Assembly: GCA_001820095.1 (NCBI GenBank)
Contig: MHOO01000011.1
Location: forward strand, 135,227-199,226
DNA: 64,000 nt
Source: Candidatus Staskawiczbacteria bacterium RIFCSPHIGHO2_01_FULL_39_25
Lineage (GTDB): Bacteria; Patescibacteriota; Minisyncoccia; Minisyncoccales; Staskawiczbacteraceae
Direction of reading: 5' to 3'
A program made the translations under genes and the position numbers. Below the pieces are notes generated by a model. That model was not told the DNA's origin. It saw only the letters and a program-made list of their open reading frames with translations, and did not search any database. Of the stretch, positions 2,991 through 63,375 are shown piece after piece. The stretch's first letter is position 1. The number at the start of each line of letters is the position of its first letter.

Positions 2991-3542
2991 ATGACGATAA
3001 CAATCATTATTTTAGCAATTGCAGCCTTGGTAGTATTGTGGCTTATCATAAGCTTCAATAGCTTGGTAACCCTAAAAAATAGGGCAAAGGAAGCTTGGTC
3101 TGATATTGATGTGCAGTTGAAAAGAAGGTATGACTTAATTCCCAATGTCGTGGAAACGGTCAAAGGGTATGCCACCCATGAACGTGAATTACTTGAAAAA
3201 GTAACCCAAGCGCGGGCAAATGCCATGGGGGCCCAAGGAGTAAAAGCAAAAGCAGATGCTGAAAATATGCTATCAGCTACCCTTAAAAGCCTCTTTGCCA
3301 TTTCAGAAAGCTACCCTGATTTAAAAGCTTCCGCAAACTTTTTAGAACTGCAGAGGGAATTGGCGGATACGGAAAATAAAATCCAGGCTGCCCGCCGATT
3401 CTATAATACCAATGTCAGAGATCTAAATATTGCAATTGAAAGTTTTCCAAGCAACCTCATTGCAGGTGTTTTCAATTTCAAGGCAATGGAATTATTCCAA
3501 GTGGCCGAAGGAGAAAAAGAACCGGTTAAAGTACAATTTTAA
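2991..3542 (+). CDS. lemA: LemA family protein
   Basis: N-terminal TM helix plus the LemA pattern (NRAKEAWSDIDVQLKRRYDLIPN..., RRFYN). Confidence 0.85.
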   Translation: MTITIIILAIAALVVLWLIISFNSLVTLKNRAKEAWSDIDVQLKRRYDLIPNVVETVKGYATHERELLEKVTQARANAMGAQGVKAKADAENMLSATLKSLFAISESYPDLKASANFLELQRELADTENKIQAARRFYNTNVRDLNIAIESFPSNLIAGVFNFKAMELFQVAEGEKEPVKVQF

Positions 3543-4181: not shown

Positions 4182-5084
4182 ATGGCTTCTATTTATAAAA
4201 ACGCCGACAAAAACACCCGAAAAACATGGTTGTTTCTAACCTTGTTTTTGGTTTTTATTATCGCCGTCGGCTGGCTTTTCAGCTACCTATTAAACAGCAG
4301 TTTTATTTTATACGTCGCCGTTTTTCTAAGCGTTGCCATGAGCATCACCAGCTACTGGTTTTCAGATAAAATTGTGCTGTCTATGGCCCATGCCAAGCCC
4401 ATTGAAAAAAGTGACAACCCTGAACTGTACCGAATTGTTGAAAATTTGGCTATTACCGCAGGCCTTCCTTTGCCTAAAATTTATATTATCTACGAGCGGC
4501 AATTAAACGCTTTTGCAACGGGAAGGGATAAGAATCACGCCGTAGTTGCGGTAACACAGGGATTACTAGAGAAACTAGAAAGGTCAGAATTAGAAGGAGT
4601 CATTGCCCATGAACTGTCGCATATTGGAAACAAAGATATGCTATTAAGCACGGTCATTGTTATTTTTGCGGGGATTGTGGCATTGCTTTCAGATTTCTTT
4701 TTGCGCATCAGCTTCTGGGGCGGGGGTCGGAGAGATTCCGATAATAACAAGGCGGGGGCATTATTGATGGTTTTAGGCATTGCAGCCGCCATATTGGCTC
4801 CTTTGGCGGCTTCATTGATCAGGTTGGCCATTTCACGGAAAAGGGAATTTCTGGCTGATGCCGATGGCGCGCTGTTGACCCGTTATCCAGAGGGATTGGC
4901 CAGCGCTTTGGAAAAGATTGCAACCGATGTGACTCCCATGCGTTCTGCGCATGCGGCAACAGCCCATCTTTATATTGATTCTCCATTTAACGAAAAACAG
5001 AGCCACAATTGGTTTGTAAAGATTTTTCAGACGCATCCGCCCGTTGAAGAGAGAATAAAGGCATTGCGGGATATGAATATCTAA
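4182..5084 (+). CDS. htpX: M48-family zinc metalloprotease HtpX
   Basis: HELSH zinc motif, TM segments, C-terminal THPPVEERI. Confidence 0.9.
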   Translation: MASIYKNADKNTRKTWLFLTLFLVFIIAVGWLFSYLLNSSFILYVAVFLSVAMSITSYWFSDKIVLSMAHAKPIEKSDNPELYRIVENLAITAGLPLPKIYIIYERQLNAFATGRDKNHAVVAVTQGLLEKLERSELEGVIAHELSHIGNKDMLLSTVIVIFAGIVALLSDFFLRISFWGGGRRDSDNNKAGALLMVLGIAAAILAPLAASLIRLAISRKREFLADADGALLTRYPEGLASALEKIATDVTPMRSAHAATAHLYIDSPFNEKQSHNWFVKIFQTHPPVEERIKALRDMNI

Positions 5085-10813: not shown

Positions 10814-11626
10814 ATGGATGCCTATAAAAAAATCGCAAATGATGCCAGAAAGAAAGTTTTGGAAATGATCCACAATGGCCAAACAAGCCATATCGGGTCA
10901 AACTTTTCCGCAATTGATATTATGGCGGTTTTATTTTCCAAACTTAATCTAGACAAAGATTTAAAGCCCAATCGCGACCGGTTCGTGCTTTCAAAAGGAT
11001 GGGTGGCAGCGGCGCTGTATTATTTTTTGTCAGAAAAAGGCATTATCCCCAAAGAAGATCTGGAAGAATTTGGCAAAGAAGGTTCAAAGTATATTGGCTT
11101 GTCAGAGCCTGCAGTCAGGGGTGTAGAAGCGGCCGGCGGGGCGATGGGCCACGGGCTTCCTATTGCCTTAGGCATGGCCTTGGCGGCAAAACGTGGCGGA
11201 GAATCTTGGAAAACGTATGTATTAATGTCTGACGGAGAATTGGACTGCGGCACTACCTGGGAATGCGCTTTGCTGGCTGCCCACCAGAAATTAAATAATT
11301 TAACGGTGATTGTTGACAGCAATGGATTCCAAGCCATGGGGACCAAGCAAGAAGTGCTAGACGTGGAACCGTTACCTGAAAAGTGGCGGGCTTTTAATTG
11401 GGATGTTGTGGAAATTGACGGCCATAATTACCGAGAAATTAGCGATGCATTAGATCGTGCGGGCACGGGGGAAAAACCTCTTATGATTATTGCGAGAACT
11501 TTGAAGGGACGCGGAGTTTCTTTTTTTGAAGGAAAATTAGAGTGGCACTACAAGACGATAGACGCGGAGAATTATCAAAAAGCGTTAATAGAACTAAATA
11601 CTTTGAATTACGAAATGCCCAATTAA
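10814..11626 (+). CDS. Transketolase, N-terminal (TPP-binding) subunit
   Basis: 270 aa; GHIGSNFSAIDI, GAMGHGLP, SDGELDCG motifs of split transketolases. Confidence 0.9.
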   Translation: MDAYKKIANDARKKVLEMIHNGQTSHIGSNFSAIDIMAVLFSKLNLDKDLKPNRDRFVLSKGWVAAALYYFLSEKGIIPKEDLEEFGKEGSKYIGLSEPAVRGVEAAGGAMGHGLPIALGMALAAKRGGESWKTYVLMSDGELDCGTTWECALLAAHQKLNNLTVIVDSNGFQAMGTKQEVLDVEPLPEKWRAFNWDVVEIDGHNYREISDALDRAGTGEKPLMIIARTLKGRGVSFFEGKLEWHYKTIDAENYQKALIELNTLNYEMPN

Positions 11627-11667
11627 AAGCAAGTTTCAGGTTCGGGAAAGCATTTCGTAATTCAAAG
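11601..11667 (+). promoter_or_regulatory. 18-bp perfect inverted repeat spanning the transketolase-N stop codon, with a conserved 17-mer in its loop
   Basis: CTTTGAATTACGAAATGC (11601-11618) / GCATTTCGTAATTCAAAG (11650-11667); loop 17-mer AAAAGCAAGTTTCAGGT recurs at 43044-43060. Confidence 0.45.
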
Positions 11668-11676
11668 TAAATAGCA

Positions 11677-14947: not shown

Positions 14948-16777
14948 ATGGACTCCCAAATAGAAGAAATCAAAAGCAAATTAAGCGTTGTGGACGTCGT
15001 GGGGAGTTATATGAAATTGGCCAAAACGGGGGCTAATTTTAGGGGAGTCTGCCCTTTCCATTCAGAAAAAAAACCCTCTTTTTTTGTGTCTCCGGCACGA
15101 GACCTCTGGCATTGCTTTGGATGCGGCGCCGGGTCCAGTATTTTTGACTTTGTCATGAAAATTGAAGGGGTGGAATTTGGAGATGCCCTAAGGATTTTAG
15201 CTAACAAGGCAGGGGTTGAATTGAAAAGGGAAAATGTGCAGTTGAGGACCGAACGCCAGCGCCTCTATGAAATTTGCGAATTAGCTTGTAAGTTTTTTGA
15301 AAAGCAGTTAGAGGGCGGAGTAGGCAAAGAGGCAGAAGAGTATTTGCTAAAAAGGGGAATTGCCAAAGAGAGTATAAAAAAGTGGAGGCTGGGGTATTCT
15401 CCCGATACGTGGAACGGCCTGTCAGATTTTTTAATAGGCAAAGGATATAAAAGGGAAGAAGTTGTAAAAGCTGGATTGGCAATTCAAAAAGAGCAGAGGA
15501 ATGATTCTTATGATAGATTCCGCGGCAGGATTATGTTTCCCGTGTTTGACTTGAACTCCCAGCCGGTGGGTTTTGGGGGAAGGGTATTTAAGCAGGGTTC
15601 AGACAAAGAAATTGCAAAATATATCAATACTCCGCAAACCTTGCTGTATGACAAATCAGGAATTCTCTACGGATTGAATAACGCCAAACTGGCCATTAGA
15701 AAGCAAAACCAATGCGTGGTGACGGAAGGATACACCGATGTCATTATGTGCCACCAGGCCGGCTATGAAAATACGGTAGGTGCGTCGGGAACCGCTTTAA
15801 CTTCCCAGCACATGGTCATTTTAAAAAGGTATTCTGAAAAATTAATCCTGGCGTTTGATATGGATATTGCTGGGGATTCGGCCACCAAACGGGGGATTAA
15901 CGGAGCCCAAGAACAGGGTTTTGACATTAAAATTATAGAAACATACCTCAAGAATGCCGATCCCGCAGACATTATTGTAAAAGATCCTGCGGCATGGGAA
16001 CAAGCGGTAGCCCAAGCCAGGGGCATTATGGATTATTACTTTGACTCGGCTTTTGCAGCATTTAATAAGAATGCTCCGGAAGGCAAAAGGGATATCGGTA
16101 AAATACTGTTGCCTGTTATTAAGCGCTTGCCTAATAAGATAGAGCAGTCATACTGGATCCAAAAATTATCTGAAATGCTGGGCGTAAAAGAAGAAGCGGT
16201 CATGGAAGAGCTGGTGAAAACTCAGGTTGCAGAACGTTCTAGTTTTGCCCGCAAGGATGCAAAAATGGCCGATAGCGCGCAAGATGAGGTATTGGGCACC
16301 GAAGGCAGAAAGAAGCTTATAGAAGAAAAAGTTATTTCGTTAATTTTAAAAAACCCTGATTATGTTAAATTAATAGACGAGGCGCACTACGCTTTTTTTT
16401 CCGAAAAAACAAGGAATTTCCTGCAAAAACTTAGCAAGATTATAGAAGAGCAAAAGCCTCTAGCAGAAGGGGAATTAGTAAAAGATTTCAGGGCAATTTT
16501 TGACAGCCTTCTTTCTTCAAAAGGAGAAGGAGTAGAGGCAGAATTTAATTCCGAGGTTAAAAATTTTTTGGCGGCGCTCGCTTTGCGGGCCGATGCCGAC
16601 TACCAAGAGGATGGCCAGGAGGAGATGTCGCTTTGCTTATTGCAGCTAAAAAATATAGAATTAAAAAATAAATTAAATAAAATTTCAGAGGATATTAAAA
16701 AAGCAGAACAGGAAAATGACCACCAAAAAGTGAATGCCTTGATTGCAGAATTTAATGCGCTAACAAAAGAATTATAA
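14948..16777 (+). CDS. dnaG: DNA primase
   Basis: [11 protein letters not shown] zinc finger, TOPRIM ([15 protein letters not shown]). Confidence 0.95.
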
Positions 16778-16779
16778 TA

Positions 16780-17964
16780 ATGGCAAAAAAGAAAAAACCA
16801 AGAAAATTAAAAAAACCGAAGCCCTTAAAGAAGAAAAAAGTTTCCAGAAAACTTTCTAAGACAAGGAAGCGTAAACCGGCAAAAAGGGTTAAAAAGGAAA
16901 AAATTACCCAAGAGCAGATAGATGCCCTTTTACGCAAAGGTGAAGAGCGGGGTTTTTTGACGAACTCTGAAATACTGTATTTTTTCCCCAACATAGAAAG
17001 CAACGTGGACGAACTGGAAAGAATATACGATCTCTTAAAAGAGCGGGGGGTTGCGATACGGGAGGTAAGGGAATTCTTGGAAATAAAATCCAAGAAAGAA
17101 AAAAAAGCAAAGAAAGCGGTTTTAGGCAAAATTGACCCCATCCAAATGTACTTAAAAGAAATCGGCAGGTCGGGGTTTTTGTCGGCCAAGGAAGAAAAAG
17201 AGTTGGCCAAGCGCATTGAACATGGAGAAGAGGACGCAAAAAATAAATTGGCATTGGCAAACTTGAGGCTCGTGGTTTCTATTGCCAAAAAATACATCGG
17301 CAGGTCGCCAAACCTCACGTTATTGGACTTGATCCAAGAGGGAAACCTGGGGCTTTTTAAGGCCGTGAAAAAATTTGACTGGAGGAAGGGGTATAAATTT
17401 TCCACCTATGCAACCTGGTGGATCCGCCAGTCAATTACCCGCGCCTTAGCTGACCAGGCAAGAACCATCAGGATTCCCGTGCACATGATTGAAACTATTT
17501 CAAAGTACACTAAAATCAGGAGGAGCCTTTTGCAAGAACTGGGCCGGGAGCCTTTGGCAGAAGAAATTGCCGCTGAAATGGGGCTGGAAGTTGATAAAGT
17601 CCACCACATCAGGAAAATTGCCCAAAAAGCGGTTTCATTGGAGACTCCGATTGGAGAAGATAAAGACAAGCAAGACAGCGTATTGGCAGAATTCATTAAA
17701 GACGACAAGTCAATTGCGCCAAACACCGAGGCCTCCAGAAAACTGTTGAAAGAACGGTTAAAAGAAATTTCCAGCGAGCTTACCCAGCGGGAATTAAAAA
17801 TTTTGGGTATGCGGTTCGGTTTGGAAGACGGCGTTATGCATACCCTTGAAGAAACTGGTGAAGAATTCGGGGTTACCCGCGAAAGAATCAGGCAGATCCA
17901 GGCAAAAGCTTTAGAGAAACTGCGAAGGCATTCAGACCTGAAAAAAGTACGAGACTATTATTAA
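16780..17964 (+). CDS. rpoD: RNA polymerase primary sigma factor with a Lys-rich N-terminal extension
   Basis: Regions 2-4 ([29 protein letters not shown]); starts 3 nt after dnaG. Confidence 0.95.
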
Positions 17965-18100
17965 ATTTGAAATTTGAAATTTACAATTTGAAATCAATTT
18001 TAAATAACTAAATTTGAAATGATTAAAACCGACGTCGCCTTTTCAAATTAATATATTGTAGTATTGAATTCAAATTTCAAATTTCGAATTTCAAATTCAA
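17965..18100 (+). repeat. Family-1 (TTTGAAAT-type) quasi-palindromic intergenic element, copy 1
   Basis: Fills the rpoD-pyk gap; core GAAATGATTAAAACCGACGTCGCCTTTTCAAATT flanked by complementary TTTGAAAT/ATTTCAAA arms. Confidence 0.65.
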
Positions 18101-18106
18101 AACGCT

Positions 18107-19183
18107 ATGAATCCACGAATTATTGCAACGATAGGGCCTAAATCTGAAGAATATGACATCTTAAGCCAAATGGCTGCTGAAGGAATGAATATCATGCGGG
18201 TTAATTTTTCCCATGCCACAGAATCTCAATGGCATAAAATAAAAGATAATCTTGCAAGGATAAAAAAAGAAACCGGCGCCGATATAAAAATGATGGCAGA
18301 CCTCCAGGGCCCAAGGATACGCTTGGGAGTGTTGCAAAAAGATGTAGAAATTGTGAAGGGCGCTACGTATATATTTTTTTCAGGGAAAGCGAACGTTGCA
18401 AAAAATGAACTGCCTATAGATTACCCTGACCTCCATAAATTCATTAAACAGGGGCAACCGATGTATCTTTCAAACCGTTTGGTTGAGTTGCGGGTTGAAA
18501 AAGTATCGGGAAAGAAAATTTTTGCAAAAGCTGTTACGGGCGGAGTGGCCTCAAGCAGAAAAGGCATTAATGTTCCAGAGACCATTATTGCGGGCAGTGC
18601 CTTAACCAAGAAAGATATCAAAGACGCAAAATTTGTGGCAAAAAACGGCGCGGATTATGTGTGCCTTTCGTTTGTGCAAACCAGCAAAGATGTTGAGCAG
18701 CTAAGAAAAGCGCTGGCAGATGATGCTATAGATATTATTGCAAAAATAGAAAGGGCGTCGGCGTTAGACCACATTGACAGCATTATAAAAGCTTCCAATG
18801 GAATTATGATTGCCAGGGGGGATTTGGGGATTGAAATGCCCATAGAAGAGCTTACTATTATACAAAAAAACCTCATCCGCCATGCGCATCAATACAAAAG
18901 GCCTGCCATTGTGGCAACCCAGATGCTAGATTCCATGGCAAAAAATCCGTATCCTACGCGGGCAGAGGCCGCTGATGTAGCCAACGCCATTTTTGACGGG
19001 GCTGACGCCGTCATGCTTTCCGATGAAACGGCTTCCGGAAATTATCCGGTCATGGCGGTGTCTACCATGAAAAAAATTGCCAAGAAAGTAGATGAATACT
19101 TCAATAGCACTAACTATTTTGAGCAGGCCCATGGGGGTGTGGGACTTGAACAGAACCAGCTTGAGAAGCGAAAACAGAGATGA
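18107..19183 (+). CDS. pyk: Pyruvate kinase, short form lacking the C-terminal domain
   Basis: Barrel-domain motifs (MRVNFSHA, MIARGDLGIE, MLSDETASG); 358 aa; last ~17 codons lie in the 5' arm of the element at 19133..19399. Confidence 0.85.
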   Translation: MNPRIIATIGPKSEEYDILSQMAAEGMNIMRVNFSHATESQWHKIKDNLARIKKETGADIKMMADLQGPRIRLGVLQKDVEIVKGATYIFFSGKANVAKNELPIDYPDLHKFIKQGQPMYLSNRLVELRVEKVSGKKIFAKAVTGGVASSRKGINVPETIIAGSALTKKDIKDAKFVAKNGADYVCLSFVQTSKDVEQLRKALADDAIDIIAKIERASALDHIDSIIKASNGIMIARGDLGIEMPIEELTIIQKNLIRHAHQYKRPAIVATQMLDSMAKNPYPTRAEAADVANAIFDGADAVMLSDETASGNYPVMAVSTMKKIAKKVDEYFNSTNYFEQAHGGVGLEQNQLEKRKQR

Positions 19184-19399
19184 GGTCAAGGCGCGACGAG
19201 GAAACATAGCCTTGCGCTATGTTTCCGAAGTCGCAACGCAGACATCATCTCTGTTTTCGCTTCCCTTCGGGCTCTGTCACTTGCTTGTCTTCTTCGTATT
19301 CAGAATGAAACGATGCGCAAGGCATCGTTTCATTCCTCAATCCTTGAATACAAGCAATATACGAGAGCTCAATTGGTTCTGTTCGAGTCCCACACCCCT
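19133..19399. ncRNA. Candidate structured RNA or structured element, copy A (267 nt; homologous to 62892..63160)
   Basis: 25-32-bp closing helix and two long internal hairpin domains; motifs TCAAGGCGCGA, GCAACG, GCGCAAGGC (GCAAG pentaloop) and CCTTGAA at the same relative offsets as in copy C. Confidence 0.5.
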
Positions 19400-19443
19400 A
19401 GCATCAAGATTGATTTTAGAAACTTATAAAAGATAAATTTTGC

Positions 19444-19480
19444 AAAAAAAATTGGGATGTCGGACATCCCAATTTTTTTG
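19444..19480. terminator. Bidirectional intrinsic terminator
   Basis: A-run, AATTGGGATGT-CGG-ACATCCCAATT stem, T-run; lies between convergent units. Confidence 0.7.
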
Positions 19481-19497: not shown

Positions 19498-19893
19498 TTA
19501 GCGGTTTATCTGTTCTTTTACCAGTTCAACTAATTGCATAGGGGAAATATTTGCTTTCACCAAAAATTTATCTGGTTTTATATAGCTTATGTTATGCAGG
19601 GCATCGCTGGTGTAATTACTTAAAATAAAAATAGCAATATCTTTGGTCGCCTCATTCTTTCGTAGGGCATACAGGATCTCTAACCCGTTGATGTCGGGCA
19701 ATACCAAGTCAAGCAAAACCAATGCTGGTTTTTCCCGTTTGCCTGCCTGCATTTCTTTTATTTTTTCCATAGCTTCTCTGCCCGTGGTGATCCCCTCCAC
19801 GTTAATATGAGCTGCTTTCAGGGCGGTGGTGTAAATAGCCATGATTTCCAGCTCATCCTCAATAAGAAAAACGTTATTTTTTGATGGTGTCAT
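19498..19893 (-). CDS. Single-domain response regulator (receiver domain only)
   Basis: 131 aa; CheY-like pattern (LIEDE, LVLLDLVLPDINGLE, K near the C-terminus). Confidence 0.85.
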   Translation of the reverse strand: MTPSKNNVFLIEDELEIMAIYTTALKAAHINVEGITTGREAMEKIKEMQAGKREKPALVLLDLVLPDINGLEILYALRKNEATKDIAIFILSNYTSDALHNISYIKPDKFLVKANISPMQLVELVKEQINR

Positions 19894-24709: not shown

Positions 24710-25351
24710 ATGGCGTATATTTTTTTAGATGAAAGTGGAGATTTAGGCTTTAATTTTGATAAAAAGGGAACCTCTAAATTTTTTATTGTAACGTTTCTTT
24801 TTATTTCTGGAAGTAAAAAACCCTTCGAAAAAATTATTAAAAAAACTCATTCAGAATTAAAGAAAAAAATAAAAAAACGGATAGGTATTTTACATGCTGT
24901 TAATGAAAAACCTACTACTCGTCAAAGATTATTGAAGAGGCTATCTGAGAAAGATTGCACAATAATGACCATTTACCTTAATAAAAGCAAAGTATTTACA
25001 AAGCTACAAGATGAAAAACAGGTGCTCTATAATTATGTAACCAATATCTTGCTGGATAGAATTTATACAAAGAGGGCAGTTAGCAACGATAAGGAAATTG
25101 AACTGATTGCTTCAAGGCACGAAACGAACAAATTTCTTAATGAGAATTTTAAAGATTACCTTCATCGAAAAGTTCGCGATAATCATAAAGGAATTATGAT
25201 GATATCCATTCGTACTCCGGCAGAAGAAAAAGTCTTACAAGCAGTCGATTTTATTAGTTGGGCGATATTTAGAAAGCATGAGAAACATGATGACAGATAC
25301 TACAATATTATTAAGAATAAAATTGTTGAAGAAAATCCTTTATATCCATAA
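24710..25351 (+). CDS. DUF3800 family protein
   Basis: N-terminal YIFLDESGD motif characteristic of DUF3800. Confidence 0.8.
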   Translation: MAYIFLDESGDLGFNFDKKGTSKFFIVTFLFISGSKKPFEKIIKKTHSELKKKIKKRIGILHAVNEKPTTRQRLLKRLSEKDCTIMTIYLNKSKVFTKLQDEKQVLYNYVTNILLDRIYTKRAVSNDKEIELIASRHETNKFLNENFKDYLHRKVRDNHKGIMMISIRTPAEEKVLQAVDFISWAIFRKHEKHDDRYYNIIKNKIVEENPLYP

Positions 25352-25817: not shown

Positions 25818-28800
25818 GTGAAAATTAACGAAGAAAAAGCCGAAATATTTTTAGACCCTGAAGATTCTAAGAAAAAGCTGTGGGCGGCTTCAGCAGATTT
25901 AATTTCCCTGTCAGAGGCTGCCAAGTTTACGCCCTACAGCGCAGAGTACTTAAGCTATCTCGCCCGCAAAGGAAAAATTGAAGCGGTAAAACTTTCGCGC
26001 GATTGGATGACCACCAAAGAAATTGTGGTTGAGTATGTTAAAGAACAGGAAGATCGGCAAAAAAAATTATCTGAAAGATTCCAGCAAGCCGAACAGTTCC
26101 GCCACCACGCCCAAGCCGGTTTTATTGGCATGAAAATATTAGCGGTAGCCAGCGCGGCTATGATGACGGTTTCCAGCGTACTGTCTCCAACGGTTACCGA
26201 ATATAAAAATCTGGCAGAAAAAGTTTCTGAACTACCAACAAAAGTTTCTGAAATTAAAATGCCGCAGATGCCAGAGATTCCCGAAATTACCCCCGCTGGC
26301 GTAAGCCAATCAACAGTAAATTACCTTACCACCATTAGCAACGCCGCAAACAACCATGCTGAAAATTTGGCGCGATCAGCAGGCAATAATCTAGCGAACT
26401 TAAGCATCTCTGTAAATAACAAAGCTGACAACTTAGCCAGGTCAGCGGGCAACGGCCTTGCCAATTTAAACCAATCAGTAAATGACGGCCTCATTAATTT
26501 AACCAAGCCGTTAACAGCTACGTTGCAAAGTTACAACGTGGGCAACATCAGCGGACGTTACAAAGTTGAAATTCCCGCGTCCGGCACCGCTAAAAAAAAT
26601 CAACTGGCCGTAGTACCAGCAACGCCAACAGCTCCAGCCGTCAAAGATTCTGCTACCACTGCTGCCACGGCTCCCGTAGTAACTTCTAAAGCGCCAAGCG
26701 TTGATGATATTATTGCTCAAAAATTACAGCTCATGCTGGCCCAGGGCCTTCTCACCGGCCCCGCAGGGCCTATTGGCCCAACCGGTCCAGCCGGGCTTCA
26801 AGGCCCTCTGGGTCCGGCAGGCCCGCAAGGGCCGGCGGGGTCTGGCATTGTTAGCAATGGCGGCGGCAGAACGAGCGCCGTAGTTGGAACCACTTCTATT
26901 GTAACGTACATACCCGCCAATCCGCCGGTAAACAATGGAGGCTCATCAATAGCAGGTTTTACCACTCTATCAGCAGACACCTTCAACACCAAAGATGCTA
27001 CGCTTAGCGGTTCATTAGCGGTTACAGGTACTTCCACGCTGGCAAGCATAACCGCTTCAGGCGCTGTAAACCTTACGGGAACTACCACCATTGCCGCGCT
27101 TACCACGACCACCTTAAACCCGGGCTTTACGGCCGGGTCCATTGTATTCCAAGGGGCTTCTAACTTGGCTCAAGACAACGCTAACTTCTTCTGGGATGAT
27201 ACCAACAATCGGCTAGGAATTGGCACGGCTAGCCCAGGCGCATTGCTGGACGTTCGCGGCGCGGCCATTTTCAACGAAGATGGCGCTGACGCGGATTTCC
27301 GCGTTGAAGGAGATACGGATGCCAACCTTTTGTTTATAGACGCTTCCACTGATCGCGTTGGCATTGGCACGGCCACGCCTTCAGCCCTATTCAGCGTTGG
27401 TAGTGGCAGCCCCTTCCAGGTTGATTCTTCCGGCAACATTGCTTCTTCCGGAACCACCGGCGTTACACTTTCCGGGGTTGGCGCCGACCTCACGTTCACA
27501 GGTACCGGCAACCATGATGTTTCGGCTTCGTCTGGAACACTGCGGGTTGGAGCCTCAACCATCATAGGCAATGTCCAAGCCGTAGATGATACTATAGACA
27601 TTGGTACGGCAGGTGTCCGGTTTGATAAAATCTACGCCAATGAAGTCAATGCCTCCATATTGGTGGGCACCATTAGCGGCGGCAATGTTCAGGCAGAAAC
27701 GTTAAGCATTAATTCTGACAACGCCACCGCTGATACCGAGGATGCCTTTTTAGCTTTTGAGCGCGGCACGGTTACCCCCAACGCCCTCTTGCAGTGGGAT
27801 GCTACCAGCGACCTGTTTGACTTCAACTCCCGCCTAAGGCTGACTGGCACCATCCTTGGCGACCCATCAATTATCTTTAACTCTGCTACCGCCAGCGATA
27901 CTGATTATTGGATTTCCCTGCAGGAAGACGGCGCCGGAGACGATGATGACACCTTTCAAATTGGCAAGGGTACAATACCGGGGACCAGCTCTTTTGTCAC
28001 TATCAACAAAGACGGCAACGTCGGGATTGGCACCTCAACGCCGATGTCAGCAGCAGGATTTCGCAAGGGACTAGAAATTGCTGCAGAGCCGAATACGTTT
28101 ACCCCATCACTAGTACTTCGAAGCACTGCCTCCACAAGTAATAATGCACAAATCATGTTTACGGGCCCCTCAGGAAATAACTGGGCAATTGGCACCGACG
28201 TAGCAAGCGGTTCTGGATCACGGGACTTCCATTTTTATGATCTGAACTCCTTAACGCTGAAGATGGTTGTACAGAGTAGTACTGGAAACGTCGGGATCGC
28301 TGACTCCTCTCCCGACGACCTCCTGAACATCCACTCCGCCTCCGCCGCCGCAGGGATGGCGATCACCAGCCTCGGCACCGACACCGACCCGTATATCAAG
28401 TTCGAGCTTGCAGATGGCACTCCCACCTTCACCATGGGCGTGGACGACTCGGACAGCGACAAATTCAAGATCAGCACGACGGCGCTGGGGACGAGTGATC
28501 GGTTGGTGATTGATTCGAGTGGAAATGTGGGCATCGGAGACACCTCCCCCGACGACCTCTTAAACATCCACTCCGCCACTGCCGCCGCAGGATTAGCGAT
28601 CACGAGCCTCGGCACCGACACCGACCCGTATATCAAGTTTGAACTCGCGGACGGCACCCCCACCTTCACCATGGGCGTGGACGATAGCGATTCTGACATG
28701 TTCAAGATTAGCACCACCGCCTTAGGAACAAGCGACCGGTTGGTCATTGATTCGAGCGGGAATGTAGGCATTGGCGATACCTCACCCGACGACCTATTAA

Positions 28801-31800
28801 ACATCCACTCCGCAAGCGCAGCCGCAGGCTTGGCGATCACGAGCCTCGGCACCGACACCGACCCCTATATCAAATTCGAACTTGCGGATGGTACATCCAC
28901 TTTCATTATGGGGGTAGATGATTCAGATTCCGACAAGTTCAAAATCAGCACAACGGCGTTGGGGACGAGTGATAGGTTCGTGATTGATAGCAGTGGGAAT
29001 GTGGGCGTCGGTAACACCGACCCGTATGCCCAATTCCATCTGGGTGCTCGCTACGCTGTAACGCCGACCAACATTACCAGTGCCAAGGCTGCCATCACCA
29101 ACGGTGCTCTGTACATTGGCACGACGGCCCAAGGCTCAAACAACACCAACGTCGATCTGCTTGAGTTAGGACACATTAAGACGGGCGCTTTCGGCGGCGG
29201 TTCGGTCAACATCAACTTCCGGGGCTTCGACGCCGGCAACGGTACGAACAGAGGTGTGCTTGCGCAAATCAATGGCGGTCAGAAAAATGACGATTTGGTC
29301 GGTTCTGGGTTCCTTGCATTTGGCGTAGCTGCTGATGAAGCTACGACTCCTACCGAGGCGATGCGGATTGTCGAAACTGGATTGATCGGAATCCAAAATA
29401 CCGATCCTTACGCAAGGCTTCATGTCGGAGCCAAGTACCCTTTTACTCCCACCGGAGCCACGAGTGGGAAAGCGGCGATCACTGGAGGAAGTTTGTTCAT
29501 AGGTACGTCAGCTCAAGCGGACCACAACCTCAACATCGACCTTTTGGACTTGACCCAAACGCAGAATGGAACAGTCAATGGTGGATCGGTCAATATTAAC
29601 TTCCGGGTCTATGATACCGGTAACAATAGCAACAAAGGTGTCTTAGCGCAGGTCGTTGGTGGGCGCAAAGATGGCATCTCAGCCGCTGGTTCGGGTTTCC
29701 TAGCATTCAAGACAGCGGCAGCTGCCGCAACAACATCAACCGAGAGGATGCGAATCGATGAAAACGGAAACGTCGGGATTGGTGACACTTCTCCCGATGA
29801 CCTTCTAAATATCTCCTCCGCTGCTGCGGAAGCCGGCATTGCGATCACCTCCCTTGGCACCGACACCGACCCGTATATCAAGTTTGAACTCGCGGACGGC
29901 ACCCCCACCTTCACCATGGGCGTGGACGATAGCGATTCTGACATGTTCAAGATTAGCACCACCGCCTTAGGAACAAGCGACCGGTTGGTCATTGATTCGA
30001 GCGGGAATGTAGGCATTGGGACGGCAAGCCCAACGGCATCCTTACACATTAAAGCAGGTACAGCCACCGCCAACACTGCTCCGCTTAAATTTAATTCAGG
30101 GACACTGCTTACCACTGCAGAAGCGGGAGCCGTAGAATTCTTAACCGACGCTTATTACGGAACCATCACCACGGGAGCCGCAAGAAAAACATTCGCATTT
30201 TTAGAAAGTCCAATCTTCACCGGCACCGTTACCATCCCAACTCCATTTACCCTTGGGGCTACTTCGGTAACTACTACCGGCACACAATTGAATTATCTCA
30301 ATGCGGCAACTGGAACCACGGGAACCGCCAGCACTAATCTGGTATTTTCAACTTCGCCAACTATTACAACTCCTATATTTACCACAAATATTACAACTCC
30401 ACTGGTGATTGGAGGCACGTCAACCACCGCTAACCTCACCTTGCAGACCACGACAGGCGTCGGCACGACAGGTGCGGATATGCACTTCCTTGTTGGGAAC
30501 GCTGGGGCGACGGAGGCGATGACGATTTTAAATAACGGAAACGTCGGGATTGGCGATACAGATCCTGGTTCTCTCCTCCAGGTGGCAGGAAGAATTATTG
30601 GTGGTGCGAACACAGCGCCATCATCAAATAATACTACGACTCCATTGTACTTATTCACGAGTGCTAACGGAGGCATTCGTTTGCATCCTTCTGCTGCAAC
30701 AAATAGCACTACTATTATAGACGTAAGCGATGCATCTACTCGATATGCCCAAATTCAATACGATGGCACTAATAGCATATTGAATATTTCAAGCCAACAA
30801 TCAACAACAGGACAAATTAAATTATCAACTGGTTCTGGAACCGAAGCAGTAAGGATTGATGCTTCTCAAAGAGTTGGCATCGGCACCACCGCCCCACAAT
30901 CATTGCTCGATGTTCAAGGACCAACAGGCACCGGAGCAGCAACTGCAGGTATCCTTACGTTAGCCACCAAAGAGCTTACTATTGTTGATGATGACCAATT
31001 AGGAAGAATTAATTTTAACGCCCCTCTTGAATCTGACGGCTCTGACGCTATCTTGGCGGGCGCAGCTATTTGGGCGGAAGCGGAAGCAACTTTTAGCTCC
31101 ACCGTCAACAACACAGCTTTGGTATTTGGAACCGCAACCACATCAGCGGCAGTTGAAAGAATGAGGATAGATGCGAGCGGGAATGTGGGGATCGGCGACA
31201 CTACGCCAAGTTATAAATTAGATGTTACTGGCGATGCTCACTTTACTGCTAATATGACGCTTGATGCTGGTCTTACGGTTGCTAGTACCGCCAGTATTGG
31301 AAGCACGGTGACTCCGTCAAATTCAACGTTATTTGTAAATGGAACACTGGCAATAGGATCAGACGCCCTAAATAACCGGTTTAGCACTACCACCAGCGGT
31401 ACCGGCTCCACCCAGATGTTTATTGGAAATTCTACCATTGATGTAACTGCCCCTTCTGACGTTATTACCAAGGAAAATATTGTTTCTACCCAGTATGGGC
31501 TCAATGACTTAATGAAGCTTTCTGTAAAAGAATTTAATTATAAAAAAGAGTATGTAGATGAAGGCGAAATGCAAAAGCTGCACACGGGAATGATTGCTCA
31601 AGAAGTAGAGCAAATTTTCCCCGAAGCTACTATATATAGGTCAGACGGATTAAAGTCTATTGATTACTCAAAAATGGTGCCGTTGCTTATTAAGTCTATC
31701 CAAGACTTGCGGCTGGAGTTTACTGCTGCTTTGGGAGATTACCTTGCAGCAAACCCAAATGCGCTTACGGGTAGTTCGGGGTCATTGTCTGAAATGAAGA

Positions 31801-32429
31801 GCCTGACATTGAGCGAGGATTTGACAGTAAAAGGAAAAGCGACGTTTGAGGGCGATGTTGACACCCAGGGAACGCTGACCTTAAGCAAGCAGCAGGGAGG
31901 GCTGGCTACTATTGGGGCTGGGGCAAAAGAGGTAAGCATTAACTTTAGCAAGCCGTTTGCCGCAAAACCAATTGTTACGGTAACGCCGGAGGGGGAGTCG
32001 GTGGTGTTCAGCACGTCTGACGTAAGCGCCACGAGCTTTACCATTAAGCTGGCGGTTCCGGCAACGTCTAACATCACCTTTGCCTGGATAGCGCTGGCGG
32101 TACAAGATGCAACTTCTATTAGTACGGGAGGTACGGGCAGTGTTGGCGGAATTTCTGGGTCTTCGGGTGGTTCTGGCTCTTCTACAACAGAGCCTGCGGA
32201 CTCTCCGGCGGCTGAAACTGATTCAACAGCAACAGAGACGCCTGCTGGTTCAGAAGCAGAAGAAACCTCTACTTCTGAAACTGAAACTGCGCCTTCTTCA
32301 GAAACTCCGGTTGCCGAAACTCCAGCCTCTGAACCTGCTTCTGAACCAGAACCAGCTCCAGAACCAGAGCCTGCTCCGGCTCCTGCACCAGAACCGACTC
32401 CCGAGCCAGCTCCAGAGCCAACACCGTAA
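25818..32429 (+). CDS. Giant (2203-aa) membrane-anchored fibre protein: HTH-like N-terminus, TM helix, collagen-like run, tail-fibre-type repeats, peptidase-S74-like chaperone module, lectin-like module, Pro/Glu/Ala-rich tail
   Basis: Uninterrupted 6.6-kb ORF (GTG start); 10 G-X-Y triplets at 26757-26846; 79-aa repeats; SDVITKENIV...MVPLLIKSIQDL module; PEPAPEP tail. Confidence 0.85.
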   Translation: MKINEEKAEIFLDPEDSKKKLWAASADLISLSEAAKFTPYSAEYLSYLARKGKIEAVKLSRDWMTTKEIVVEYVKEQEDRQKKLSERFQQAEQFRHHAQAGFIGMKILAVASAAMMTVSSVLSPTVTEYKNLAEKVSELPTKVSEIKMPQMPEIPEITPAGVSQSTVNYLTTISNAANNHAENLARSAGNNLANLSISVNNKADNLARSAGNGLANLNQSVNDGLINLTKPLTATLQSYNVGNISGRYKVEIPASGTAKKNQLAVVPATPTAPAVKDSATTAATAPVVTSKAPSVDDIIAQKLQLMLAQGLLTGPAGPIGPTGPAGLQGPLGPAGPQGPAGSGIVSNGGGRTSAVVGTTSIVTYIPANPPVNNGGSSIAGFTTLSADTFNTKDATLSGSLAVTGTSTLASITASGAVNLTGTTTIAALTTTTLNPGFTAGSIVFQGASNLAQDNANFFWDDTNNRLGIGTASPGALLDVRGAAIFNEDGADADFRVEGDTDANLLFIDASTDRVGIGTATPSALFSVGSGSPFQVDSSGNIASSGTTGVTLSGVGADLTFTGTGNHDVSASSGTLRVGASTIIGNVQAVDDTIDIGTAGVRFDKIYANEVNASILVGTISGGNVQAETLSINSDNATADTEDAFLAFERGTVTPNALLQWDATSDLFDFNSRLRLTGTILGDPSIIFNSATASDTDYWISLQEDGAGDDDDTFQIGKGTIPGTSSFVTINKDGNVGIGTSTPMSAAGFRKGLEIAAEPNTFTPSLVLRSTASTSNNAQIMFTGPSGNNWAIGTDVASGSGSRDFHFYDLNSLTLKMVVQSSTGNVGIADSSPDDLLNIHSASAAAGMAITSLGTDTDPYIKFELADGTPTFTMGVDDSDSDKFKISTTALGTSDRLVIDSSGNVGIGDTSPDDLLNIHSATAAAGLAITSLGTDTDPYIKFELADGTPTFTMGVDDSDSDMFKISTTALGTSDRLVIDSSGNVGIGDTSPDDLLNIHSASAAAGLAITSLGTDTDPYIKFELADGTSTFIMGVDDSDSDKFKISTTALGTSDRFVIDSSGNVGVGNTDPYAQFHLGARYAVTPTNITSAKAAITNGALYIGTTAQGSNNTNVDLLELGHIKTGAFGGGSVNINFRGFDAGNGTNRGVLAQINGGQKNDDLVGSGFLAFGVAADEATTPTEAMRIVETGLIGIQNTDPYARLHVGAKYPFTPTGATSGKAAITGGSLFIGTSAQADHNLNIDLLDLTQTQNGTVNGGSVNINFRVYDTGNNSNKGVLAQVVGGRKDGISAAGSGFLAFKTAAAAATTSTERMRIDENGNVGIGDTSPDDLLNISSAAAEAGIAITSLGTDTDPYIKFELADGTPTFTMGVDDSDSDMFKISTTALGTSDRLVIDSSGNVGIGTASPTASLHIKAGTATANTAPLKFNSGTLLTTAEAGAVEFLTDAYYGTITTGAARKTFAFLESPIFTGTVTIPTPFTLGATSVTTTGTQLNYLNAATGTTGTASTNLVFSTSPTITTPIFTTNITTPLVIGGTSTTANLTLQTTTGVGTTGADMHFLVGNAGATEAMTILNNGNVGIGDTDPGSLLQVAGRIIGGANTAPSSNNTTTPLYLFTSANGGIRLHPSAATNSTTIIDVSDASTRYAQIQYDGTNSILNISSQQSTTGQIKLSTGSGTEAVRIDASQRVGIGTTAPQSLLDVQGPTGTGAATAGILTLATKELTIVDDDQLGRINFNAPLESDGSDAILAGAAIWAEAEATFSSTVNNTALVFGTATTSAAVERMRIDASGNVGIGDTTPSYKLDVTGDAHFTANMTLDAGLTVASTASIGSTVTPSNSTLFVNGTLAIGSDALNNRFSTTTSGTGSTQMFIGNSTIDVTAPSDVITKENIVSTQYGLNDLMKLSVKEFNYKKEYVDEGEMQKLHTGMIAQEVEQIFPEATIYRSDGLKSIDYSKMVPLLIKSIQDLRLEFTAALGDYLAANPNALTGSSGSLSEMKSLTLSEDLTVKGKATFEGDVDTQGTLTLSKQQGGLATIGAGAKEVSINFSKPFAAKPIVTVTPEGESVVFSTSDVSATSFTIKLAVPATSNITFAWIALAVQDATSISTGGTGSVGGISGSSGGSGSSTTEPADSPAAETDSTATETPAGSEAEETSTSETETAPSSETPVAETPASEPASEPEPAPEPEPAPAPAPEPTPEPAPEPTP

Positions 32430-32448
32430 TAAATTTGAAATTTACAAT

Positions 32449-32948
32449 GAATCTTAGTCGAATCTAGAATCTTGTATCTTGTAGCTTGAATAGAATACGG
32501 AATTATGAATAACGATGAAAATAAAATTAAAAAATTCACTGACCTTCATGCTTGGCAGGAGGGGCATAAATTAGTCTTGATGGTATATAAAAATACTGAA
32601 AAATTTCCTGATAAAGAGCGGTTTGGAATTACAGATCAAATGAGAAGGGCGGTAGTTTCACTAACTTCTAATATAGCAGAAGGATTTTCAAGAAGATCGT
32701 CAAAAGAAAAGAACAGATTTTACTGCATGGCCCAAGCATCCTTAGTAGAACTGCAAAACCAACTTATTATATCCCGCGATATTGGTTACTTACCAAATGA
32801 TGATTTTAAAATTATTGCAGATCAGTCAATTGTAGCCAATAAACTTTTAAACGGGCTTTTAAAAGCCACAAAAGATAAAAAATTTGAGTTTTAAATTCTA
32901 GATTCCACATTCAATTCAAGCTTCTAAATACAAGATTCAAGATTCTTA
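32449..32948 (+). mobile_element. Family-2 quasi-palindromic element carrying a four-helix-bundle gene between its arms
   Basis: Left arm 32449-32504 and right arm 32895-32948 match the contiguous empty copies at 42441..42560 and 2862..2988 (inverted). Confidence 0.5.
32505..32894 (+). CDS. Four-helix-bundle protein (23S rRNA intervening-sequence protein family)
   Basis: 129 aa; FTDLHAWQEGHKL, ITDQMRRAVVSLTSNIAEGF and ASLVELQNQL motifs typical of the family. Confidence 0.85.
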   Translation: MNNDENKIKKFTDLHAWQEGHKLVLMVYKNTEKFPDKERFGITDQMRRAVVSLTSNIAEGFSRRSSKEKNRFYCMAQASLVELQNQLIISRDIGYLPNDDFKIIADQSIVANKLLNGLLKATKDKKFEF

Positions 32949-33651: not shown

Positions 33652-33794
33652 AATTTGAAATTTTCAATTTGAAATTTGAAATCAATTTGAAATTATTGAA
33701 TTTGAAATGATTTAAACCCGGCGTCGTGTTTTCAAATTTAAATATTCAATCATTGAAATATTGAATTCAAATTTCAAATTTCAAATTGAAAATT
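33652..33794 (+). repeat. Family-1 quasi-palindromic intergenic element, copy 2
   Basis: Core GAAATGATTTAAACCCGGCGTCGTGTTTTCAAATT with TTTGAAAT/ATTTCAAA arms; ends about 10 nt before ATG 33804. Confidence 0.65.
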
Positions 33795-33803
33795 CGCAAA
33801 GAT

Positions 33804-34556
33804 ATGGACAACAATACTAAAGCGCTCATTATTGGCGGTATCGTAGCGGTGCTCTTGGTGGGAGGATTGTGGGTATTATCAAATACGGAGCTGTTTAGCG
33901 GGACGGAAAATCCATCCCAGAATAATGGGACCATATTGCAAAATAATAAAGAGAAGGGCACGCTGGTGCTTTCTATTACCGATGCCGCCGTTGACATGGG
34001 CACCATAAGCGCCGTAAGCATGACCATAGATAAGGTCTACGTACATAGCAAAGCGCAAGGATGGGTTACGGTGTTAAAGGCTCCGCAAAGCTTCAGCCTG
34101 CTTACCTTAAAGTCAAGCGGACGGGCGGCATTGCTTGCAAAAATTGATATTGCCGCAGATACGTATGACCAGGCCTGGCTGCACATTAGCAATGTAACTA
34201 TTACGGAAGCAGGGAAAGTGAAGGAAGCATTGTTGCCATCCAATGATTTTAAAATGGAAGGCTCAATTAAGGTTGAGAATAATACCAATTCCATTGCTAA
34301 GTTTGATATTCTTGCCGACCAATCTATTCATAAGACCAGCAAAGGGGAATTTGTGTTTGCTCCGGTCATAAAATTTGAAAGCAGGATTAATGCTACCATT
34401 AGTTTTGATTCAAACAATTTTGTGACGATATCGGACGGAAATTTAGTTTCCAGCACTACGGCGGGGATGAATGTTGACGGGCAGGTAAAAACAAATTTCC
34501 AGCTTGACCCTAAAAAAGAGCTTGAGATTAAAAACGGGGTAATTGAAATTAAGTAA
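33804..34556 (+). CDS. DUF4382 domain protein (membrane-anchored)
   Basis: LSITDAAVDMGTISAVSMTIDKVYVH... pattern; ATG 33804 inside ORF 33786..34556. Confidence 0.7.
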   Translation: MDNNTKALIIGGIVAVLLVGGLWVLSNTELFSGTENPSQNNGTILQNNKEKGTLVLSITDAAVDMGTISAVSMTIDKVYVHSKAQGWVTVLKAPQSFSLLTLKSSGRAALLAKIDIAADTYDQAWLHISNVTITEAGKVKEALLPSNDFKMEGSIKVENNTNSIAKFDILADQSIHKTSKGEFVFAPVIKFESRINATISFDSNNFVTISDGNLVSSTTAGMNVDGQVKTNFQLDPKKELEIKNGVIEIK

Positions 34557-43012: not shown

Positions 43013-43197
43013 CATTAGACGTGAATCTTGAAACCCCTTATTAAAAAGCAAGTTTCAGGTCTTTTTCCTAAATTCCAGCTGCAAATGTGCAATAATTCTA
43101 AAACGTAGCTTGCTACGTTTTAGAATTCTATCACATTTTCGCTCTGGAATTTAGAAAAAATCCCAAGAAAGGGTTTCAAGGTTCACGTCATTAGATG
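43013..43197 (+). ncRNA. Candidate structured element B: 20-bp closing helix, conserved 17-mer, ~100-nt nested hairpin
   Basis: GACGTGAATCTTGAAACCC pairs with GGGTTTCAAGGTTCACGTC (one U-G wobble, + strand only); AAAAGCAAGTTTCAGGT at 43044-43060. Confidence 0.4.
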
Positions 43198-46520: not shown

Positions 46521-46668
46521 CTTGAATTTGAAATTCGAAATTTGAAATTTGAATTCAATATTTTAATATTTAAATGTTCCAATTTGAAAACACGACGTCC
46601 GGTTTAAATCATTTCAAATTTGATAATTTCAAATTGACTTCAAATTGTAAATTGTAAATTTCAAATTT
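46521..46668 (-). repeat. Family-1 quasi-palindromic intergenic element, copy 3 (inverted)
   Basis: Reverse complement contains GAAATGATTTAAACCGGACGTCGTGTTTTCAAATT with the same arms. Confidence 0.65.
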
Positions 46669-50741: not shown

Positions 50742-50748
50742 TAAAAAT

Positions 50749-51507: not shown

Positions 51508-51509
51508 TT

Positions 51510-62891: not shown

Positions 62892-63160
62892 AGAGCCACG
62901 GAACACATTATAACTAGTTTTAGCGGAGCGAATTAAGCCAAGATTCAAGGCGCGAGGAAGAGATACGTACCCTCTGCGGTACGTTCTCGACGAGCAACGA
63001 AGAAGCTTGGCTTAATTCGCCCGCCCAAGGGGAAGCCAAAAAATGAATAATTTCTGCGTTATGCCTCCGAGGCGTAGCGCAAGGCTACGCCTCGTTCGGC
63101 AAGCCTTGAAATTATTTCATTTTTTGGGTTCTAAAACTAGTTATAATGTGTTCCGTGACT
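62892..63160. ncRNA. Candidate structured RNA or structured element, copy C (269 nt; homologous to 19133..19399)
   Basis: 31-bp closing helix (one mismatch), 13-bp and 19-bp internal helices; TCAAGGCGCGA 62944, GCAACG 62993, GCGCAAGGC 63076, CCTTGAA 63103. Confidence 0.5.
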
Positions 63161-63375
63161 CCAGGTTCGTAAAGAACAGTCTCACTTAATGTGGGAAGGT
63201 CGTACAAATTTCTAATTTGTATGACAGGAAAAATATAGCTCATTCAAGAGCAAAAGAGCCGCTTAAAGCGGCTCTTTTGCTCTAAACTCAATACAGAGTT
63301 TAACACCCTTTATGATAATTTGATTAAATTTTGTAAGTAATAACCAAGTCGTCCGTCATATAGTAAGAAAAATAT

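Follow-up and report, generated by a model that had tools for sequence, protein, structure and literature searches.

A nested-hairpin repeat of two inverted modules at gene ends in Candidatus Staskawiczbacteria, probably a small mobile non-coding DNA element

Palindromic non-autonomous repeats are known as a kind, and those compared here are the Correia elements of Neisseria, the enterobacterial ERIC sequences, the palindromic elements of Rickettsia and bcr1 of Bacillus cereus, for which compensatory changes have reportedly been seen. A further point of reference is the inverted terminal repeat of parvoviruses such as adeno-associated virus (AAV), a T-shaped hairpin with the order A-B-B'-C-C'-A'. 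Among RNAs, PMC12045711 describes stem-loop tigRNAs with a variable palindromic stem and a pair of spacers, each 8-12 nt long and delimited by box C (CNA) and box D (YG), with C-G closing pairs. A preprint attributes to the TasR tigRNAs of the candidate phyla radiation (CPR, Patescibacteria) terminal stems that are extended and a further stem separating two 10-nt spacers, one of the studied TIGR-Tas systems being from Candidatus Staskawiczbacteria (bioRxiv 10.64898/2026.09.09.750476). Here we describe an element that occurs twice in a stretch of 64,000 nucleotides (the window; contig MHOO01000011.1, positions 135,227 to 199,226) from the groundwater bacterium Candidatus Staskawiczbacteria bacterium RIFCSPHIGHO2_01_FULL_39_25, as copy A at the 3' end of the pyruvate kinase gene pyk and as copy B some distance downstream. 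It is probably a small, multi-copy, mobile non-coding DNA element, and it looks more like the relic of a hairpin transposon than like a conventional RNA gene.

Copy A (19133..19399, plus strand) and copy B (62893..63161, plus strand) follow the same five-part plan, consisting of one arm of an outer helix P1 (25-33 bp), domain 1, a small central hairpin, domain 2 and the second P1 arm. Domain 1 in both copies is a 19-23 bp stem closing on a conserved internal loop and an inner hairpin, and domain 2 has the same build. The element measures 266-273 bp. The extent of copy A was assigned from its minimum free energy (MFE) fold, the fold of its minus strand and its near-identity to a copy at 4578-4843 of metagenome contig L009, and that of copy B from its MFE fold and from the same sequence in six independent assemblies. 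Folded as RNA, copy A has an MFE of -162.1 kcal/mol vs -78.5 +/- 4.8 kcal/mol for dinucleotide shuffles (z -17.6, 0/200), and copy B has an MFE of -151 kcal/mol (z -15.7). The P1 arms of copy A lie at 19133..19165 (5' arm, an inverted repeat that also codes for the pyruvate kinase tail GGVGLEQNQLEKRKQR with its stop) and 19368..19398 (3' arm, from fold and inverted repeat), both on the plus strand; the closing helix proper pairs 19134-19158 with 19374-19398 (25 nt, 96% complementary). The domain-1 helix of copy A pairs 19165-19187 with 19241-19263 (23 nt, 96% complementary). The outer arms of copy B are 62893-62923 and 63131-63161 (31 nt, 97% complementary), with inner arms at 62928-62946 and 63002-63020. 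Copy B starts 9 nt past the stop codon of an 86-aa open reading frame (ORF).

Read along the plus strand, domain 1 of copy A runs from the stem through TCAAGGCGCGA, a hairpin with the loop CTTGC and GCAACGCAGA to the closing stem. The small hairpin CCCTTCGGG follows at 19263..19271 (plus strand), recognized in both sequence and fold and placed on the two-fold symmetry axis, and domain 2 then reads TTCTTCGTATTC, a hairpin with the loop GCAAG, and CCTTGAA. The two copies have in common TCAAGGCGCGA (at 19186 in A and 62945 in B), GCAACG, GCGCAAGGC and CCTTGAA at matching offsets, and little else. An earlier reading of the sequence, the first-pass annotation, had described helices and motifs of this kind, and inverted-repeat and fold analysis recovered every one that it had described where it had put them. 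Missing from that annotation were the inverted nature of domain 2, the mutual complementarity of TCAAGG and CCTTGA, the overlap with pyk, and the partly conserved termini (GGGG...CCCC, mostly after T-R, R being a purine). The loop motifs of the element are CAAGGC, GCCTTG and AACGCAGAA, and each element contains the 6-mer CAAGGC/GCCTTG four times, with its orientation alternating. As a separate observation, the 3' arm of P1 in copy A holds GTTCGAGTCCCAC (19378-19392), which resembles the T-loop and T-stem of a tRNA; it is absent from copies B-D and no tRNA is predicted there.

In domain 2 the module of domain 1 recurs as its reverse complement, giving the whole element dyad symmetry. The eight modules obtained from domain 1 and the reverse-complemented domain 2 of copies A-D align over ~60 nt, with the consensus TTCAAGGCG(C/T)GA, a hairpin with the apical loop GCCTTGCGC, and (C/T)AACG(C/A)AGAA. 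Every module has a separate clamp stem of 19-23 bp, and the outer inverted repeat of 25-33 bp encloses both. A covariance model of the module finds one match per strand in each element at 70-89 bits. In copy A these are the forward module at 19173..19255 (plus strand, 89.1 bits) and the inverted module at 19278..19360 (minus strand, 76.5 bits, also supported by the module alignment); in copy B they are the forward module at 62932..63016 (plus strand, 83.1 bits) and the inverted module at 63040..63122 (minus strand, 88.8 bits). Across 190 kb of Staskawiczbacteria DNA the model has no match outside the elements.

The stems covary. RNAalifold predicts 103 pairs for a five-sequence alignment, and 52 of them are changed on both sides with pairing kept, compared to 27.3 +/- 3.3 two-sided changes when partners are shuffled (0/500 shuffles reach 52). 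When the partners are slid by 1-3 columns, 6-19 pairs are left and the paired cells drop from 84.7% to 37-47%. The claim that the helices differ in sequence and yet stay paired is thus confirmed. Since pairing is maintained, selection or a copying mechanism acts on a folded single strand, although covariation is compatible with an RNA as well as with a DNA strand. It should be mentioned that copies C and D were found with search patterns that required the conserved blocks; because of this, the block conservation seen in C and D follows from the search, and the comparison of A with B alone is unbiased.

The two strands of each copy fold equally well (-159.5 vs -159.2 kcal/mol for copy A and -148.6 vs -148.3 kcal/mol for copy B); the minus strand of copy A folded as single-stranded DNA has a z of -16.8. 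The helices are ~97% Watson-Crick. Among ~400 Watson-Crick pairs, the plus strand has 6 internal G-U pairs and 3 A-C mismatches, and the minus strand has 10 and 3; these counts reveal no strand-specific excess of G-U over A-C. There is no sign that one transcribed strand is the selected one. The parts of the element also appear in different combinations and orientations. The domain-1 apical loop of copy D is flipped, with GCAAG in place of CTTGC, and the domain-1 core of copy A is 93% identical to the inverted domain-2 core of copy C, a copy whose flanking clamp stems agree in sequence with B and D (76-84%). Retention of a motif alongside its reverse complement, inversion of loops and exchange of inverted cores characterize recombining DNA palindromes, not an RNA gene.

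Six copies are known in total, two of them found with the block-forcing patterns. Motif, inverted-repeat and covariance-model scans of the window found A and B and no third copy; near-matches to TCAAGGCGCGA at 25112 and 35721 lie inside coding sequence and are not copies. An exact-match pattern was then run against one genome per species (185,579 species genomes), and its single match is copy C in another Staskawiczbacteria genome (L001), positioned between a terminator and a tRNA-Ser gene. It is also observed that copy C lies between an extended -10-like sequence (TGGTAGAAT) and tRNA-Ser(CGA), with features at 331-414 and 712-760, and it would then lie in the leader of the tRNA precursor. The exact-pattern scan of metagenomes gave 12 matches, two of them real (L009 and L012) and the other 10 chance occurrences in GC-rich DNA. 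L012 carries copy D, upstream of efp. The copy on L009 is 99.2% identical to copy A over 266 nt and sits at the 3' end of ruvB. The rest of L009 has no match to the window, its composition is like that of the window (tetranucleotide r 0.97), and its metagenome of origin is shared with strain contigs of this organism.

The search for relatives by other routes was negative. Exact-pattern scans of viral sequences returned noise or nothing, a protein query built from six-frame translations of the element and directed at spurious ORFs elsewhere found nothing, and a profile of the element-encoded tail GVGLEQNQLEKRKQR (E ~1e-7 in a local test) had no match among only 7 database candidates. The pyk neighbourhoods of relatives (L151-L154) hold no copy. 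A TCAAGG...CCTTGA match at 16205-16358 of contig L139 inside a GC-rich aminoacyl-tRNA synthetase gene was rejected as chance. That gene (tRNA-synt_2, 15805-17109) is markedly GC-richer than its surroundings, a second paralogue adjoins it, and it may have been horizontally acquired. Rfam 15 gave nothing at gathering score for either copy, hits up to E<=10 being noise with the best at 22.9 bits vs a cut-off of 40, and BLAST against plasmids and phages found no match to the element. No convincing promoter or terminator of its own was found inside the element. A kink-turn, an H/ACA pocket, attC R/L boxes, a tRNA-like 3' end and CTTG nick sites of the pC194/IS91 type were considered by inspection and rejected, each fitting a few bases only.

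The assemblies behave as expected of a repeat. In independent assemblies, contigs stop inside copy A in 7/10 cases on the response-regulator side and in 5/9 cases on the pyk side. Two alternative joins were found, which would represent one or two additional loci, both carrying diagnostic sequence variants. In L156 a 223-aa ORF precedes the element and its stop codon TAG straddles the 5' junction, and in L167/L172 the 3' end of the element is followed by promoter-like sequence and a DUF378 gene. Copy B, the sole member of its subfamily (B/C/D) found in this genome, is assembled through in 6/6 contigs, all of them identical. The contig breaks and alternative joins are the behaviour of a multi-copy repeat, and the A subfamily occupies at least three loci. 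A further contig, L162, was set aside as a differing site, its end being low-complexity assembly junk. In L156 there is in addition a 45-nt mini-hairpin at 3226-3270 (TAGGGACGCGAGGCGTAATTTGCTTTAGCAAATTCGCCCCGTCCT, -23.6 kcal/mol), inserted in the 5' arm of P2 of the A-type copy; the similarity between its ends (TAGGG...CCT) and the termini of the large element suggests a nested insertion by the same machinery.

The element has altered the ends of host genes. The pyruvate kinase gene occupies 18107..19183 (plus strand), and comparison with orthologues indicates that its last 16-17 codons and stop derive from the element. Copy A overlaps the last 50 nt of the ORF, which runs through the P1 and P2 arms and ends in ...FEQAHGGVGLEQNQLEKRKQR before its stop. 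The predicted protein is identical (100%) to pyruvate kinase from Candidatus Staskawiczbacteria bacterium RIFCSPLOWO2_01_FULL_40_39, and the window sequence is also present on contig MHPB01000013.1 of assembly GCA_001820275.1. Among the orthologues listed, most cover ~95% of the query, and the closest are 339-344 aa long; the orthologues lack the element-derived tail. All 14 orthologues examined stop 0-8 residues past the conserved NY[FL] motif, the closest five of them 5-6 residues past it (for example ...NYFEHIKN and a stop); ...NYLEQNLK and a stop is another such end among the orthologues. The element lies at the original pyk stop or at most a codon or two away, because removal of 19133-19398 puts TAG right after ...CAT. 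On L009 ruvB is likewise fused to the element and ends with the same 16-residue tail, ...PRGVGLEQNQLEKRKQR and a stop; the block common to the pyk and ruvB copies runs from GGGGTGTGGG to CCCACACCCCT. Only one long frame runs through copy A, and B, C and D do not preserve it.

The junctions themselves have some regularity. The termini read GGGG...CCCC in A, C and D. In 6/6 copies T-R precedes the 5' G-run (CATG, CCTA, CCCTA, TTTA, CCTG and GCTA), so that the left flanks read (C/T/A)-T-R before the G run, a small sample. TA or TT follows three of the five visible 3' ends, and a stop codon (TAG or TAA) stands exactly at the boundary in three A-type junctions. A TA-rich target preference together with purging of insertions within genes would explain the positions at gene ends. 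It had been argued that the end helices are not conserved in sequence and that the element is therefore not a miniature inverted-repeat transposable element (MITE); this is not supported, as the argument compared members of two different subfamilies, and within a subfamily the ends are identical. Comparison of copy A with the ruvB copy finds two substitutions, both of which weaken pairing in A (MFE -159.5 vs -165.8 kcal/mol), and this is what decay of a resident copy would look like.

Considering these observations, we are somewhat inclined to regard the region as one copy of a non-autonomous, MITE-like nested-hairpin repeat, whose functional unit would be the module hairpin, read in its folded state by a protein encoded elsewhere. 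The element would spread, or would have spread recently, with the help of such a protein, which we infer would recognize the module as a folded single-stranded hairpin, much as folded DNA is read by integron integrases or by HUH transposases of the IS200/IS605/REP type. Recognition may depend on the apical loop, on the conserved 5-by-6 internal loop and on a purine-purine mismatch located three pairs below the internal loop. If only copies with intact hairpins propagate, the helices would stay paired while their sequence drifts. The symmetry would let either strand present one forward module in its 5' half. Resident copies are probably co-transcribed passively in 3' untranslated regions (UTRs), between cistrons or in leaders, where their stable RNA hairpins may affect mRNA processing or stability.

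Several observations weigh against this proposal. There is no clean target-site duplication, only T-R (TA/TG) at most ends, and a TA...TA reading is possible for the ruvB copy alone. The search for an empty site was negative; the pyk orthologue closest to this one is just 72% identical, and the strain assemblies are identical across copy B. The Pfam scan, which covered ~50 window proteins and 10-kb extensions on each side, detected no transposase, HUH protein, recombinase or reverse transcriptase in the window and its 20 kb of extensions. The family is rare, with a single match among 185,579 species genomes and two among the metagenomes scanned, exact patterns being strict. The alternative contig joins could be assembly chimeras, not separate loci, though chimeras themselves need repeats. 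All 6/6 copies are co-oriented with their flanking genes (nominal chance 1/64, or 1/32 for mutual agreement only), and conservation is stronger in the domain-1 motif than in its domain-2 mirror; a strand-specific RNA function would also predict these two things.

Such a function is the substance of the alternative that survives best, an unlikely one all the same, namely that the element is a genuine structured RNA family, acting in cis as a 3' UTR or leader element or processed into a small RNA, with a three-way-junction fold whose loops bind protein or RNA. It would account for the strong covariation and for the lack of a match to any known family, and the six co-oriented copies lie in regions expected to be transcribed, which are 3' UTRs (A and B), the space between cistrons (the ruvB copy), the tRNA-Ser leader (C) and the region upstream of efp (D). 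A and B have the same TCAAGGCGCGA in domain 1, with drift in its domain-2 mirror, and the apical loop GCCUUG, as read in the sequence, is able to pair with CAAGGC of the internal loop. However, the orientation bias is confounded with the direction of transcription and replication, because nearly all window genes are on one strand. A motif plus its reverse complement is not a requirement of an RNA, whereas any DNA palindrome inherently contains both; the strands fold equally well with G-U pairs that are rare (1-3%) and unbiased, and perfect duplexes of 20-33 bp are atypical of functional bacterial RNAs. The inverted apical loop of copy D, the near-identical copies at unrelated loci, one of which disrupts an ORF end, and the pairing-weakening direction of both mutations between A and the ruvB copy also argue against it. 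The first-pass annotation had proposed a new structured RNA family, and its claim stands in part: the family is uncatalogued and has conserved loops and covarying helices, whereas its assignment to RNA rather than to a MITE does not agree with the symmetry, the equal strands, the unrelated loci and the altered 3' end of pyk.

A bolder form of the mobile-element proposal, which we regard as improbable, is a new CPR-specific mobile hairpin cassette, in which the module would be read as a folded single strand either by an RNA-guided partner of the Nop-domain/Tas-like or IS110-like type, the module then being an orphan guide unit with a fixed target, or by a new HUH-type enzyme; the symmetry would make either strand or insertion orientation functional. 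The narrower idea that the forward module is a guide-RNA-like unit akin to the stem-loop tigRNAs of TIGR-Tas or to IS110 bridge-RNA loops, binding a Nop-domain protein encoded elsewhere, with the mobile palindrome letting either strand yield one functional unit, has a smaller chance again. Its appeal is architectural. A long variable palindromic stem closes on two ~10-nt strands split by an inner stem-loop, as in the published descriptions, and each domain-1 strand starts with C-A-A or C-G-A, an allowed box C, at the closing C-G pair and ends with N-G at the next closing pair. Yet the would-be spacers are conserved, not variable (A and B share GGCGCGA and GCAAC), and could partly pair with one another, and AG stands in place of the UG or CG of a box D. 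Tandem arrays are absent, the units being solitary, and the second unit is the reverse complement of the first. Pfam detected no Nop-domain or Tas protein in the window or its flanks, with no tas gene within 84 kb, and Staskawiczbacteria are not named in the text supplementary files of PMC12045711. Because two defining features fail, the element is not filed under tigRNAs.

Slighter still is the prospect that the element is a DNA regulatory or recombination site, either a segment that can invert between the 25-33 bp inverted repeats or a four-site CAAGGC/GCCTTG array for a DNA-binding protein. Inverted repeats around ~210 bp have the geometry of invertible switches, the 6-mer does occur four times in alternating orientation, and the flipped loops and swapped cores show DNA inversion or recombination on these palindromes. 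There is no invertase nearby and no evident promoter in the element, however, and inversion of an interior that is itself two-fold symmetric would change little. Double-stranded sites need neither perfect nested hairpins nor covarying stems, and positions mostly 3' of genes are odd for operators. An assembly artefact or chance palindrome is hardly credible, for although metagenome assembly can make hairpin chimeras and contigs do break here, the same sequence is present in NCBI, ENA and JGI assemblies from different samples, related but distinct copies exist in other genomes, and the z-scores are below -15.

The genes around the two copies include housekeeping functions (groEL, glmS, a split transketolase and dnaG-rpoD-pyk), and the window also holds a restriction-modification pair, an AbiV pair, PD-(D/E)XK nucleases, a DUF3800 protein, two giant ORFs and an Avd-like protein. 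As had been stated at first pass, no reverse transcriptase, IscB/TnpB or integrase is found nearby by Pfam, and two unannotated ORFs have no PDB relative. Downstream of copy A, a bidirectional terminator-like hairpin (AAAAAAAATTGGGATGTCGGACATCCCAATTTTTTT, 19440..19478, no strand assigned), read in the sequence, is common to pyk plus the element and to the convergent response-regulator gene (19498-19893, minus strand, from the Pfam scan). Downstream of copy B an inverted repeat forms a perfect 18-bp terminator-like hairpin (63247..63283, no strand assigned).

Two other repeat families were seen in the window. The exact 16-mer AAAGCAAGTTTCAGGT occurs at 11626-11641 and 43045-43060, in the loop region of two long hairpins with unrelated stems. 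The first of these (11594-11674) overlaps the 3' end of the transketolase N-terminal ORF (10814-11626), and the second (43018-43189) is nested, with an MFE of -78.9 kcal/mol (z -11.1) and CTTGAAACCC/GGGTTTCAAGG in its outer stem. This second hairpin family resembles the main element in its conserved loop motif, its free stems and its position at a gene end. The third family comprises ~140-nt intergenic inverted repeats of short periods of the AATTTGAAATTTGAAAT type at 17961-18100, 33652-33794 and 46525-46667, one of them just upstream of pyk.

Other features of the window are noted briefly. Immediately after a 2203-aa ORF (region 25818-32894) comes the gene for an Avd-like / 23S rRNA intervening-sequence protein (32505-32894), an arrangement that recalls diversity-generating retroelements; Pfam detects no reverse transcriptase nearby, and the ORF at 33786-34556 is DUF4382. 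A defence island at 49875-53235 encodes an N6/N4 DNA methylase with an EcoO109I-like endonuclease, then an AAA_15/AAA_21 ATPase with a HEPN AbiV protein. PD-(D/E)XK/Cas4-like nucleases are encoded at 54379-55218 and 60926-61696 and a DUF2779/Cas4-like protein at 46673-48127. Several RNA motifs associated with DUF3800 are in Rfam; the window has a DUF3800 gene at 24710-25351 and no DUF3800-associated Rfam motif at gathering score.

CPR bacteria have small, streamlined genomes whose repeats and mobile elements are poorly described. The element remodels host gene ends, as the 16-residue tail shared by pyk and ruvB illustrates, and it fragments metagenome assemblies. It is also a warning for structure-based RNA discovery: covariation alone cannot tell an RNA gene from a DNA hairpin element, and tests of symmetry and of strand-specific wobble pairs can. 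If a partner protein is found, the element would offer a tractable case of hairpin-directed mobility in the CPR or, less likely, of a guide-RNA-like function.

We have compared the element with four groups of described systems. With tigRNA and IS110 bridge-RNA loops it has in common a variable palindromic stem, 9-11 nt strands that run from C-N-A to N-G at C-G pairs, and an inner stem-loop; it differs in that the strands are conserved, box D is AG, the units are solitary and inverted, and tas is absent within 84 kb. The AAV inverted terminal repeat has an outer palindrome around two side-by-side inner palindromes, as here, and its flip/flop recalls the inner inversion of the element. The element is, however, chromosomal, bacterial, 267 nt long, not at a genome end and without a Rep binding or nicking motif, so that the likeness is an analogy of shape only.

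Closer in logic are the palindrome-associated elements derived from IS200/IS605, REP/REPIN sequences with RAYT, and integron attC sites, all of which are folded hairpins with conserved unpaired bases and free stem sequence. They lack target duplication, and none can be read consistently here; attC sites also lie just 3' of ORFs, and REPINs are inverted doublets. In contrast to these single-stranded DNA hairpin elements, the present one is much larger, nested (three helices) and two-fold symmetric as a whole, and it has no R/L boxes and no GTAG-type motif, with no gene for a Y1 HUH transposase (TnpA) or an integrase seen.

MITE-like palindromic repeats resemble the element in being short and non-coding (266-273 bp here), in having terminal inverted repeats and a long-hairpin fold, and in having several near-identical copies dispersed over unrelated sites, either at the ends of genes or in transcribed intergenic DNA, with residues added to host proteins. 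The element differs from them in having no clear target duplication and no known cognate insertion sequence, in an interior composed of two inverted module copies with their own clamp stems, and in termini and stems that diverge across subfamilies with the loop motifs fixed, which is the reverse of the usual. No described family in Rfam, plasmids or phages is matched, and among palindromic non-autonomous repeats it is unusual to see fixed loops combined with perfect stems of free sequence, two inverted modules and cores that reassort.

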